Origin: Bacillota bacterium
GTDB lineage: Bacteria > Bacillota > Dehalobacteriia > UBA4068
Reading direction: 5' to 3'
NCBI GenBank assembly: GCA_050942825.1
Contig: JBMNOA010000001.1
Span: forward strand, 8,354 to 72,353
DNA: 64,000 nt
This document shows positions 36,780 to 39,470 of the stretch, piece after piece. A program made the translations under genes and the position numbers. How positions within the stretch are numbered: position 1 is the stretch's first letter; every line of letters starts with the position of its first letter. The notes below the pieces were generated by a model. That model saw only the letters and a program-made list of their open reading frames with translations. It was not told where the DNA came from and made no database searches.

Positions 36780-37106
36780 TTAGGCCAATTCTTCCTGGGA
36801 TTGATCTTCTGAATTTTGTTCTTCTTCCTCAGCTTGGATAGCATCTCGATTTTCAAGGGCTTCCTGATATTTTTCCAAAACTTTATTTTGAATAATATTT
36901 CTTGCTTCTTGAGAAATGGGATGTGCAATATCCCTAAATTCGCCATTAGCTGTTTTTCTGCTAGGCATAGCCACAAACAATCCGCTTTGACCATCAACTA
37001 CCTTTACATCATGAATAACAAAAGCATTATCAATAGTTACAGAAGCAATAGCCTTCATTTTTCCCTCAGCTAATAACTTTCTTACTCTTACGTCAGTTAT
37101 ATCCAT
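36780..37106 (-). CDS. spoVG: SpoVG
   Basis: [26 protein letters not shown]. Confidence 0.97.
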
Positions 37107-37154
37107 ATTTAGTTCCTCCTTGATGAAAATTTAATAAATAATCCCCTTTTATAC

Positions 37155-37200
37155 AATTACTCTGAATTTTTAGAAAACCCTTTTTTTTATAAAAATTTTT
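37155..37200 (-). promoter_or_regulatory. sigmaH-like spoVG promoter with AT-rich UP element
   Basis: Minus strand AAAGGGTTT-N11-AGAGTAAT, similar to the B. subtilis spoVG promoter. Confidence 0.55.
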
Positions 37201-37271
37201 CCTGTTTTATGCATATTTATAAAAAAAATATCGTTTTTACTATCATTTTTTTATATATTGAATTTTTTTCT

Positions 37272-37299
37272 TTGCAAAAATAAAAAATAGGTATATAAT
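37272..37299 (+). promoter_or_regulatory. sigmaA promoter of the corA leader
   Basis: TTGCAA-16 nt-TATAAT. Confidence 0.6.
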
Positions 37300-37307
37300 G
37301 TATAGAT

Positions 37308-37446
37308 GCATAGAGGATATGTACAAAAAGGCTGCCTTAGAGGACAAACGGCCACAGCGTCTCTAGCGGCTATCCAATGTAACCAGATCACATTCTGATT
37401 GTACAGGAACCAAAATTGTAATAACGGCATATATCATTTATTATGC
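37308..37446 (+). ncRNA. Candidate structured RNA (three-stem junction), family not recognised
   Basis: Hand-folded stems; see findings. Confidence 0.35.
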
Positions 37447-37493
37447 TAACTCTTATGAGAATAATCTTGTGATAAATTATGGGAGGTGAGTCC

Positions 37494-37586
37494 ATGGACG
37501 GCGACCCTGGCAGTAGACAGCTTAATCAACAGAATATAAATTTCCGGGGGAGCTATTGGCAAACCACCAGCATAATCCTCCGGTAA
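37494..37586 (+). CDS. Putative corA leader peptide MDGDPGSRQLNQQNINFRGSYWQTTSIILR
   Basis: Strong SD GGGAGGTGA, ATG at 37494, TAA at 37584-37586 just before the corA SD. Confidence 0.55.
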   Translation: MDGDPGSRQLNQQNINFRGSYWQTTSIILR

Positions 37587-37604
37587 ATCAAGGAGGGATA
37601 AAAT

Positions 37605-38531
37605 ATGATTTTCACTTACAATACTGTAGACGATAAGCTCGTTTGCTGCAATCAATTCCCTAAGGGATGTTGGATAAACCTTATTAATCCTACCGAGCCA
37701 GAAATACAAAGAGTAGTAAATGAAACGGGCTTGGATTACGATTTTTTGAAATATCCTTTAGATGATGAAGAAATTCCCCGCATAGAAGTAGAAGAAGATC
37801 AAGTAATGATCATTTTCAATATCCCCATTATTGAAGACGGCGAAGTGATATATGATACTATACCGTTAGGAATTATTCTTAATGATGATTATATCGTTAC
37901 AGTTTGTCTGGAAGATGCAGATCTCTTGCAAGAATTTACTTCCGGGCGCATCAAAGGCTGGGCCACTTTTAAAAAGACCCGCTTTATTTTTCAGCTTTTG
38001 CATCGCAAAACAACTCTATTTCTCAAATATTTGCGCGATATCCATCGACGTACCAGCGAGATCGAAAATACCTTACGTCAATCCATGAAAAACAAGCAAT
38101 TGATCCATTTGCTCAATTTACAAAAAAGCCTGGTTTATTTCAGCACGGCACTGAGGGCCAATGCTAAAGTTATGGAGAGGCTTTTGCGCAGCAAAGCCAT
38201 AAAAATGTATGAGGAAGATGAAGATTTATTAGAGGATGTCATCATCGAAAACCGTCAGGCTATCGAAATGGCCGATGTCTACAGCAACATTTCATCCAGC
38301 ACCATGAGTGCTTTTGCTTCACTTATCTCCAATAATTTGAATATCGTCATGCGATTTTTAACCGCCATCACGATTATTCTGGCTATACCAACTATGCTAT
38401 CAAGTTTCTGGGGTATGAATGTACCTGTACCAATGACTGACAACCCCATTGCTTTTACTATTATTGTTTTAGTTGCTGCCGCTTCTTGTTTGATCGCAGT
38501 ACGTCTTTTAATCAAGAAAGATCTATTTTAA
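37605..38531 (+). CDS. corA: CorA-family magnesium transporter
   Basis: WINLINP, ISNNLNIVM, FWGMN signature, two C-terminal TM helices. Confidence 0.95.
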   Translation: MIFTYNTVDDKLVCCNQFPKGCWINLINPTEPEIQRVVNETGLDYDFLKYPLDDEEIPRIEVEEDQVMIIFNIPIIEDGEVIYDTIPLGIILNDDYIVTVCLEDADLLQEFTSGRIKGWATFKKTRFIFQLLHRKTTLFLKYLRDIHRRTSEIENTLRQSMKNKQLIHLLNLQKSLVYFSTALRANAKVMERLLRSKAIKMYEEDEDLLEDVIIENRQAIEMADVYSNISSSTMSAFASLISNNLNIVMRFLTAITIILAIPTMLSSFWGMNVPVPMTDNPIAFTIIVLVAAASCLIAVRLLIKKDLF

Positions 38532-38636
38532 AAATATCGTCAGATATTTTTAAAATAGATCTTTAGAAGTTTCAAAGCCGCTATAATAACATGCCAGCTA
38601 TAAAAGGACTGAGTTTTCTCAATCCTTTTTTTTATT

Positions 38637-39470
38637 TTATAAAGTATGGCAAACCTTAACAAAAGGCCAAATTTTTAATAATTTTTTTTGAACTGCCAGA
38701 GCTGTTTCCTCATCGGGGGCCAAGCCAAAAACTGTAGGGCCACTACCGGACATTAAAGGATATAAACCACAGGCGGCCATCTCAAACTTTATTTTGGCTA
38801 TTTGAGGATATTTTTCAATTGTGACAGTTTCTAAGAAATTTATCAAAAGGGGCCCGATATATTGTGGTTCTCCAAATAATAAGGCTTCTATTAAAGCTTG
38901 AGTATGGGGACGTTTCTTGACTTTTTTGGGAGAAAATTCTTTATAGATCTCTGCGGTGGATACGGAAAACCCGGGATTAATTAGTAAAAGATGTTGCCTG
39001 GGCAAAGGTGGTAAGGGGGTTAAAACCTCCCCTATCCCTTCCGCCAGAGCCGCGCCTTTAAGGAGACAAAAAGGGATATCTGAACCCAATTTGAGTGCTA
39101 ATTCCCTCAATTGATGATGAGACATACCTAAGTCAAAAAGCTGATTAGCTCCTTTTAATACGGCTGCAGCATCAGTGGAGCCTCCCGCTAAACCGGCGGC
39201 TATAGGAATATTCTTTTCTATCTTGATAGACAAATGCTGATTTAACCCCAATTCTTTTTTTAAAAGTAACCAGGCCTTTAAAGCAATATTATCTTCATTG
39301 GTAGGTAAACCGGCATTACTTGTAATAGAATCAACCTCGGATTCTTCCAATTTGACGATATCCATCAGCGATATCTGCTGCATAATCATCTGTAAAAGAT
39401 GGTAACCATCTGGTCGTTTTCCAACTATTTCCAAAGACCAATTGATTTTAGCTGGCGCATTAATAATCAT
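38637..39470 (-). CDS. ispE: 4-diphosphocytidyl-2C-methyl-D-erythritol kinase
   Basis: APAKIN, IPIAAGLAGGSTDAA, MSGSGPTVF. Confidence 0.97.
   Translation of the reverse strand: MIINAPAKINWSLEIVGKRPDGYHLLQMIMQQISLMDIVKLEESEVDSITSNAGLPTNEDNIALKAWLLLKKELGLNQHLSIKIEKNIPIAAGLAGGSTDAAAVLKGANQLFDLGMSHHQLRELALKLGSDIPFCLLKGAALAEGIGEVLTPLPPLPRQHLLLINPGFSVSTAEIYKEFSPKKVKKRPHTQALIEALLFGEPQYIGPLLINFLETVTIEKYPQIAKIKFEMAACGLYPLMSGSGPTVFGLAPDEETALAVQKKLLKIWPFVKVCHTL

Follow-up and report, generated by a model that had tools for sequence, protein, structure and literature searches.

A conserved upstream reading frame with an acidic/proline start precedes Mg2+ importer genes in Bacillota and may act as a ribosome-read switch

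In a 64,000-nucleotide (nt) stretch of a Bacillota genome (class Dehalobacteriia; GenBank assembly GCA_050942825.1, contig JBMNOA010000001.1, positions 8,354–72,353 of the forward strand; hereafter the window), the Mg2+ importer gene corA is preceded by a conserved upstream open reading frame (uORF) whose product begins with an acidic, proline-containing motif. Together with four RNA segments in and around it, this uORF may form a leader-peptide translational switch for corA, in which a ribosome lingering on the acidic/proline start at low Mg2+ would turn the gene on. We hold this reading, which draws on RNA folding models, with moderate confidence. Frames of the same kind stand before Mg2+ importer genes of four unrelated families and before little else in our scans, so that some ribosome-based control of Mg2+ uptake is very probable.

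A uORF with an acidic/proline start precedes corA

The corA leader contains the following parts.

37481–37489, plus strand: extended Shine–Dalgarno (SD) sequence of the uORF, GGGAGGTGA, read from the sequence
37494–37586, plus strand: leader uORF of 30 sense codons and TAA (ATG 37494–37496, TAA 37584–37586), peptide MDGDPGSRQLNQQNINFRGSYWQTTSIILR, conserved in relatives
37505–37510, plus strand: core of segment 1, CCCUGG (end of codon 4, codon 5, start of codon 6), paired with segment 2 in the minimum free energy (MFE) and centroid structures
37544–37551, plus strand: segment 2 (anti-anti-SD), G-rich CCGGGGGA within the uORF, a partner of segment 1 or segment 3
37576–37583, plus strand: segment 3 (anti-SD), TCCTCCGG in DNA and UCCUCCGG in RNA, directly 5′ of the uORF stop, a partner of segment 2 or the corA SD
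37590–37597, plus strand: segment 4, the corA SD AAGGAGGG, with GGAGGG at 37592–37597
37605–38531, plus strand: corA, 308 amino acids with a GMN motif, the genome's only CorA match

The first-pass annotation of this DNA had claimed a near-perfect SD in front of a 30-codon frame starting MDGDP. The SD is present as described, and the codon count and first residues of the frame stand; the start that it implied was one base off, the ATG lying at 37494, and its other positions and strings hold to the same precision. The peptide begins MDGDPGS, which places D/E/P-rich residues within six positions after Met (MDGDPG), and it has no family match in Pfam or NCBIfam. The uORF ends 18 nt 5′ of the corA start. 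An in-frame ATG at 37479–37481, five codons 5′ of the uORF start, overlaps the SD (MGGES-MDGDP) and is without an SD of its own. It is not conserved in a congeneric genome (G001), which has ATG ATA GCA GGA GGT GAG TTT at this place (MIAGGEF-MDSDP), and to judge from the sequence it is probably unused.

The downstream gene encodes a CorA protein (Pfam PF01544, E = 8.7e-57, 193 bits against a cut-off of 27), with the GMN motif present in the translation as FWGMNVP; the NCBIfam equivalog TIGR00383 scores 111.7, under its cut-off of 200.75. The window's genome (G000), 97% complete by marker genes, has this single CorA match and no MgtE. At the gathering score the M-box riboswitch (RF00380) is found neither in the window region nor elsewhere in the genome, and an Rfam scan of 36900–38000 at E ≤ 10 returned only three chance-level matches (snR45, caiA and Spd-sr37), so we take the region to be without an M-box. 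The leader uORF is the only recognizable Mg2+-related control element in this genome.

The leader is predicted to adopt alternative folds

Two competing pairings had been proposed from the sequence, segment 2 with segment 3 and segment 3 with the corA SD, and both fold as predicted hairpins (−18.7 kcal/mol for 2:3 and −8.4 kcal/mol for 3:4). That part of the switch logic stands; what had been missed is a third predicted helix, 1:2, in which CCCUGG of uORF codons 4–6 (37505–37510) pairs with CCGGGG (37544–37549). The free leader has an MFE of −33.8 kcal/mol, and the MFE and centroid structures both hold 1:2 together with 3:4, the latter as CCUCC (37577–37581) with GGAGG (37592–37596). Pair probabilities in the free leader are 0.95–1.0 for 1:2 and 3:4 (0.999 for the segment 1 core) and about 0 for 2:3, and constraining 2:3 gives −29.7 kcal/mol, a penalty of about 4 kcal/mol. 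When a 30-nt ribosome footprint is masked with the P site at any of codons 2–6, 2:3 becomes the MFE structure and the corA SD is unpaired. On these models the naked RNA would be OFF and a ribosome on the first codons would turn it ON, OFF being the default state because the 1:2 helix forms in the free RNA. The window leader is thereby predicted to have four regions with mutually exclusive 1:2, 2:3 and 3:4 helices, the uORF lying on region 1 and the main SD within 3:4.

The same features were compared in 39 leaders with curated main starts, 33 of which could be tested for complementarity; the six others comprised two without SD pairing in the MFE structure and four with interiors too short to segment. 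The mean unpaired probability of the main SD is at most 0.5 in 35 of the 39 leaders and at most 0.3 in 23. Against 300 dinucleotide shuffles of the uORF interior per leader, 23 of 33 leaders have significant 1:2 complementarity (SD, start and first nine codons with the interior; p < 0.05). For 2:3 (interior with the anti-SD core) the count is 13 of 33, and with a 12-nt flank it is 18 at p < 0.05 and 24 at p < 0.2. In 31 of these 33 leaders the uORF stop and the start of segment 3 are close together, −16 to +22 nt apart.

Stem covariation, proposed at the outset as a check on the pairings, is seen by eye as well as in these shuffle tests: the G-rich and C-rich elements change together between relatives. 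Segments 2, 3 and 4 co-vary across 14 leaders from the window's family; an example for segments 2 and 3 is GGGAGGC with GCCUCCC, and further pairs are GGGAAGCC with GGCUUCCC, UGGGCAGC with GCUGCCCA and GUUAUGCUG with CAGCAUAAC. A MAFFT alignment of the 14 leaders leaves the G-rich and C-rich blocks out of register, and the covariation was therefore read by eye with no formal count. Automatic, duplex-based picking of the segments was dropped, having mis-assigned segment 3 in about 6 of the 14.

The uORF is conserved in front of Mg2+ importer genes

The congeneric genome has the same 30-codon frame (MDSDPGSRNLHE...) with the same elements, and four further genera of the family carry MDGDP or MDGSP frames of 21–31 codons before corA. 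A plain blastn search with the leader reached only 5 of 40 relatives; a pattern search, fixing only GGAGGTG, ATGGA and the CC of codon 5 and using the reversed pattern as a control, then reached 14. It gave 16 matches in 15 of 41 related genomes, and none for the reversed control. Short uORFs account for 14 of these, 13 of them before a CorA-like ORF (three of the new ones were checked with Pfam) and one before an MgtE gene; the remaining two are the N terminus of a 168-amino-acid protein. Among close relatives the nucleotides ATGGACGGCGACCC are strongly conserved, and beyond them the interior is unalignable.

A wider set of 86 corA loci was made up of the window, five relatives and 80 loci from a genome contig collection. 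An SD followed by an M[DE]x[DEGSC]P uORF of 15–60 codons occurs in 21 of them within the 350 nt upstream of corA (29,855 nt in total), and not once on either strand of the other 529,923 nt of these loci. The 21 include the window and two identical sequences, and their CorA proteins range from 91% down to 46% identity to that of the window.

Searches that were not anchored on corA also led to importer genes. Across the genomes of 185,579 species the strict MDGDP pattern has 18 matches, nine before corA, one before mgtE (in a Bacillus) and eight unrelated (five the start of one 259-amino-acid Streptomyces protein, three other). A looser M[DE]x[DE]P pattern matched at least 120 stretches. The 80 of these examined held 32 closed frames of at most 70 codons, 30 with a downstream ORF of at least 90 amino acids that Pfam assigned to CorA (7), MgtE (6), Nramp (1) or to another or no family (16). 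Cultured carriers that the scans brought up include Clostridium akagii (DSM 12554), C. pascui (DSM 10365), Anaerobacterium chartisolvens (DSM 27016) and a Psychrobacillus. In a phylum sample of 401 genomes, each at least 90% complete, a loose pattern gave 71 matches in 63 genomes against 29 for its reversed control. When the ORFs behind the matches were compared with sequences of CorA, MgtE, Nramp and P-type ATPases, 23 matches proved to be short uORFs before CorA (15) or MgtE (8), and the others are N termini of long proteins or short frames before unrelated or unmatched ORFs.

The scan upstream of importer genes that the first-pass annotation had suggested is thus positive for corA, mgtE and Nramp-type genes and, for a variant of the motif, a P-type ATPase gene. 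M-box-linked Nramp relatives in Clostridia are described as Mg2+ transporters in the available part of PMC4072509.

The uORF had also been contrasted with M-box control. The contrast applies in the window, which has no M-box; at 19 of 45 other uORF loci an M-box lies on the same strand, 39–184 nt 5′ of the uORF SD, with the uORF directly behind it. By comparison, none of 15 corA loci lacking the canonical uORF has an M-box. In a class sample of 73 genomes we found ten M-boxes, eight followed by an M[DE]x[DGS]P uORF, one by an MDPDGS variant and one by neither. Where the sequence was inspected, the aptamer is followed by an intrinsic terminator and the uORF SD stands right behind the U-tract. 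The uORF module is thus separable from the M-box, being alone in the window's family and behind the riboswitch elsewhere, and this stand-alone use together with the tandem arrangement ties it to Mg2+.

Two corA loci (L027 and L052) carry near-miss leaders, MDGDAGSPSSHS (with Ala instead of Pro5) and MNPDPASYLSKYKNSIL, neither with an M-box. In L112, a metagenome-assembled genome (MAG) labelled Ignavibacteriales and so outside the Bacillota, an M-box, an MDSDPSS uORF and corA follow one another in the same order, an arrangement that could come from transfer or from a binning error.

Sequence variation points to selection on the peptide

We tabulated 51 distinct M-[DE]-x-x-P uORFs. Codon 2 is GAC in 29, GAA in 9, GAT in 9 and GAG in 4, and the proline codon 5 is CCT in 30, CCC in 11, CCG in 7 and CCA in 3, so that the conservation check proposed earlier returns synonymous variation at both the Asp/Glu and the Pro codons. 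Position 3 is small (G/S/A/C/T/N) in 47 of the 51 uORFs, position 6 is small in 43, and position 4 is D or E in 37. All frames are 21–39 codons long and stay open despite indels, and the peptides are conserved only over their first 6–10 residues, being unrelated past about residue 10. The SD reads GGAGGTG[AG] in 46 of the 51, a figure partly forced by the search patterns, and in 16 of 20 corA-anchored uORFs, a set that was not chosen for its SD.

Variation at third codon positions, a frame kept open through indels and small residues at the unselected positions 3 and 6–7 together point to selection on the uORF peptide. As far as sequence can tell, this is the pattern expected of a sensor that is translated, and it suits neither a folded RNA nor a functional protein.

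Variants with Pro at position 3 exist: MDPDGSNKTN... (27 codons, L255 in G014) lies after an M-box and before a P-type ATPase gene, and MDPDPGSS... (34 codons, L310 in G396) lies before mgtE. The motif is accordingly looser than M-[DE]-x-x-P.

A proposed mechanism and its alternatives

We propose the following sequence of events for the window leader. In the free RNA, segment 1 would pair with segment 2 and segment 3 with the corA SD, and corA would be off. The uORF combines a very strong SD with an N terminus, M-D-G-D-P followed by small residues, at which ribosomes may pause or fall apart, and more so at low Mg2+. A ribosome lingering there would cover segment 1, allow 2:3 to form and expose the corA SD. 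A ribosome that reached the stop codon would occupy segment 3 while 1:2 re-paired, and on its departure 3:4 would re-form and switch corA off again. That such pausing occurs, that Mg2+ sets it and that the output runs in this direction are the steps we infer.

The suggestion that the acidic/Pro start is a stall motif agrees with published work on intrinsic ribosome destabilization: according to the available portion of a preprint (10.1101/2021.02.02.429294), N-terminal D/E and P residues with small neighbours abort translation, and do so more at low Mg2+.

Several observations weigh against our proposal. Destabilization would free the ribosome instead of parking it, so that the ON state requires an assumed kinetic trap. 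The acidic codon 2 and the proline codon 5 were search criteria, which makes their invariance one of construction, and one pattern also limited codon 6. In 14 of the 51 uORFs position 4 is G, S, C or A, leaving a single acidic residue before Pro, and several uORFs therefore have a weaker destabilization motif. The related genomes are not independent of each other. The stability of the window leader's fold is ordinary (z = −0.79), which is unsurprising for a two-state RNA and lends no support, and even on the wider definition 15 of 33 leaders show no significant 2:3 complementarity. Finally, in a scan of ribosome positions (equilibrium folding at every second codon of the 39 leaders), an early ribosome raises the accessibility of the main SD in only about 18 leaders and one at the uORF end in about 17; ribosomes in mid-frame give no rise. 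Because early and end positions score alike, folding alone cannot separate activation by a pause at the start from activation by completion of the uORF.

The second of these possibilities is translational coupling with positive logic, in which the corA SD would be opened chiefly by ribosomes finishing the uORF, through melting or covering of segment 3 at the stop, the N-terminal motif would only throttle their arrival, and less pausing or abortion would yield more CorA. We rate it as unlikely. It would agree with the constant placement of the uORF stop near segment 3, with the stop-to-start distance of just 18 nt in the window and with the gains from a ribosome at the uORF end, which include an Nramp leader (L139) where nothing else raises accessibility. 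Coupling leaves without a role the 2:3 complementarity, which exceeds shuffles in 18 of 33 leaders. In the window the footprint of the terminating ribosome covers part of the corA SD itself, and in many leaders the stop-to-start distance runs up to 40–136 nt. Coupling combined with abortion at low Mg2+ would moreover switch importers off when Mg2+ is scarce, opposite to the M-box that stands ahead in 19 of 45 loci. A pause at the start is preferred on the corresponding grounds: it gives the conserved 2:3 helix a use, it explains the stop beside segment 3 (where a terminating ribosome would hold segment 3 while 1:2 re-forms) and it has the uORF and the M-box ahead of it working towards one outcome. 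It is also consistent with the tested precedents mgtQ, N-terminal DE/P abortion and corL.

The same RNA switch might instead answer to another signal, such as Pro-tRNA or elongation factor P (EF-P) status, translation capacity, polyamines or another transported cation. Pro5 is the most constant residue, a second module behind a Mg2+-sensing M-box could bring in a second signal, and leader ORFs of Salmonella Mg2+ genes are described as also sensing proline and ATP (mgtP and mgtM; available parts of PMC8092293 and PMC3641672). Set against this, the uORF accompanies four unrelated families of Mg2+ importer and little else in the scans, and the window's genome, with no M-box and no other CorA or MgtE, would be expected to have some Mg2+ input at this gene. 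A signal other than Mg2+ therefore seems improbable to us.

It is very unlikely that the uORF encodes a functional small protein, for instance a transporter partner or regulator, with the RNA pairings secondary. There are models for such a role: MgtR and MgtU act on MgtC and MgtB (PMC8092293, in the part available), and for a conserved small ORF behind a mycobacterial Mbox a role as peptide partner has been considered (PMC12810186, likewise in part). Some members also end in a hydrophobic stretch. Conservation is nevertheless limited to the first 6–10 residues while length and the rest of the peptide vary freely, what partial C-terminal likeness there is falls in the stretch of RNA pairing with the anti-SD, the peptides belong to no family in Pfam or NCBIfam, and an identical N terminus stands before four structurally unrelated transporters.

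An RNA-only element (a riboswitch or protein-binding leader) with an incidental open frame is highly improbable, for although ATGGACGGCGACCC is strongly conserved among close relatives and part of it pairs with segment 2, the variation at codons 2 and 5 sits on third positions, the frame is open over 21–39 codons in 51 of 51 cases, its SD is near-perfect and correctly spaced, Rfam has no match at E ≤ 10 and the interior cannot be aligned past the close relatives.

Relation to known systems

The RNA logic we propose is closest to mgtQ, which the available part of PMC8092293 describes as an eight-codon, translation-aborting ORF before mgtB in the Salmonella mgtCBRU operon; there a ribosome on region 1 permits 2:3 and frees the ribosome-binding site, an effect that needs acidic residues and is opposed by L31. 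Both mgtQ, as described there, and the window uORF are short ORFs with acidic residues near the start, placed in region 1 of a 1:2/2:3/3:4 RNA with a translational output (in our case predicted) for a Mg2+ transporter. They differ in that the window uORF has 30 codons instead of eight and spans segments 2 and 3, and that uORFs of its type have an invariant Pro5 and an extended SD, lie in a 5′ leader (often after an M-box) and not between two genes, and occur in Bacillota before CorA, MgtE, Nramp-type and P-type ATPase genes. We found no sequence likeness between the uORF and mgtQ.

As in the enterobacterial mgtA leader peptide MgtL, a short ORF lies in the 5′ leader of a Mg2+ importer gene (37494–37586, before corA) with an acidic/Pro motif right after Met. 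In MgtL, as far as our sources describe it, alternative RNA folds register failed translation and so switch on the importer when Mg2+ is low, which is what we propose for the window uORF; its output is Rho-dependent transcription termination, unlike the SD masking predicted here. The Rfam scan of 36900–38000 at E ≤ 10 gave no sign of homology to an enterobacterial leader RNA, the enterobacterial Mg sensor included. Chadani 2017 and Gall 2016 are cited in connection with MgtL and intrinsic ribosome destabilization.

A uORF in the leader of corA itself is known from E. coli and Salmonella, where it is named corL; in E. coli, corA expression varies inversely with corL translation, and the effect of intracellular Mg2+ is exerted via the leader (PMC11552253, available part). 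By that account corL starts at UUG, contains few acidic or Pro residues and works with Rho, whereas the window uORF starts at AUG behind a very strong SD, opens with a clear D/P motif and has a predicted SD-sequestering hairpin. The M. tuberculosis pe20 Mbox, described as a translational platform with Rho termination, is likewise separated from Mg2+-related genes by small ORFs, and SD/anti-SD pairings occur there too (PMC12810186); that system belongs to another phylum and involves a mycobacteria-specific small protein, and in the available part of the source no acidic/Pro sensor is proposed.

The four-segment layout recalls attenuation of the ermC/cat type. There, too, the leader peptide lies in the first of four segments and the main SD in 3:4, and a stalled ribosome flips the fold; in those systems the stall is drug-dependent, the leader ORF ends earlier and the genes confer resistance. 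The M-box (ykoK type, RF00380) shares gene families and phylum with the uORF and precedes it at the loci given above, and differs from it as a metal-binding aptamer with a terminator that involves no translation.

Gram-positive Mg2+ importers are explained by the M-box riboswitch. To our knowledge, the only bacteria in which acidic/Pro leader peptides have been tested as ribosome-based Mg2+ sensors are E. coli and Salmonella (MgtL, mgtQ and possibly CorL). The first-pass annotation had not recognized such a system as described in Clostridia, and our search agrees: no description of a leader ORF of this kind in Bacillota, or of an M-box-then-uORF tandem there, was found in the full-text literature, outside which most subscription journals and supplements lie. 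Two published elements proved not to be the same, the mgtE motif of PMC11109978 being a Thioalkalivibrio RNA and the 'small ORF' of PMC4072509, as described in the available part, an MgtE-like fragment.

A conserved, unannotated uORF with an N terminus of the MgtL kind thus precedes four types of importer gene in many Bacillota families. As a tentative generalization, on which we stop somewhat short of an even bet, an M-[D/E]-small-x-P uORF with an extended SD may be a modular ribosome-based Mg2+ sensor, widespread in Bacillota and present in at least one Ignavibacteriales MAG, that serves all four importer families either alone or as a second tier behind an M-box. If so, the principle of ribosome-based Mg2+ sensing would reach another phylum, and sensing through ribosome destabilization would be a strategy of bacteria at large, with the enterobacteria no special case. 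The textbook M-box riboswitch would gain a second layer of control, with many 'M-box-regulated' genes controlled in two steps, by RNA and then by the ribosome. Annotation would gain a signature: a perfect SD and M-D/E-x-x-P, 21–39 codons long, ahead of a masked SD.

Other features of the locus

Upstream of the leader are two further parts.

37272–37299, plus strand: promoter-like TTGCAA-16-TATAAT (consensus scan), with identical hexamers before the uORF in the congeneric genome (by eye)
37300–37480, plus strand: spacer of 181 nt between the promoter-like site and the uORF SD, absent from the congeneric genome

In the congeneric genome the promoter lies immediately upstream of the uORF. The consensus scan places a second promoter-like site at 37416–37444, inside the spacer. 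The spacer occurs once in the genome, gives no match to Rfam at E ≤ 10 and has a fold no better than that of shuffled sequences (z = −0.59); its single copy and ordinary fold speak against a repeat or a structured RNA. Its length is near that of an M-box with terminator, which occupy the same position in other genomes, and no residual M-box similarity was found in it.

Another short frame, unrelated to the uORF, recurs about 105–262 nt 5′ of corA in several Clostridia MAGs (L013, L016, L017, L023, L031 and L034). Examples are MIMLCLIRNSR, MIMLSLIKNLHLS, MTMQFLIKTLQNN and MIMQFSIKTLHGN, each behind a AGGAAAATACAGAT-like sequence, and these loci have no M-box. The frame may encode a further leader peptide or belong to an RNA motif. 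A transfer-messenger RNA (tmRNA) gene lies about 1 kb 5′ of corA in L015, L016, L017, L020 and L031, also Clostridia MAGs, and in L101 a tetrahydrofolate (THF) riboswitch lies on the far side of the M-box.

Within 36780–39470 of the window the gene order is spoVG (36780–37106, minus strand), corA (plus strand) and ispE (38637–39470, minus strand). A perfect, AT-rich 20-bp palindrome resembling a bidirectional terminator lies at 38519–38562, where it overlaps the 3′ end of corA, facing the convergent ispE.

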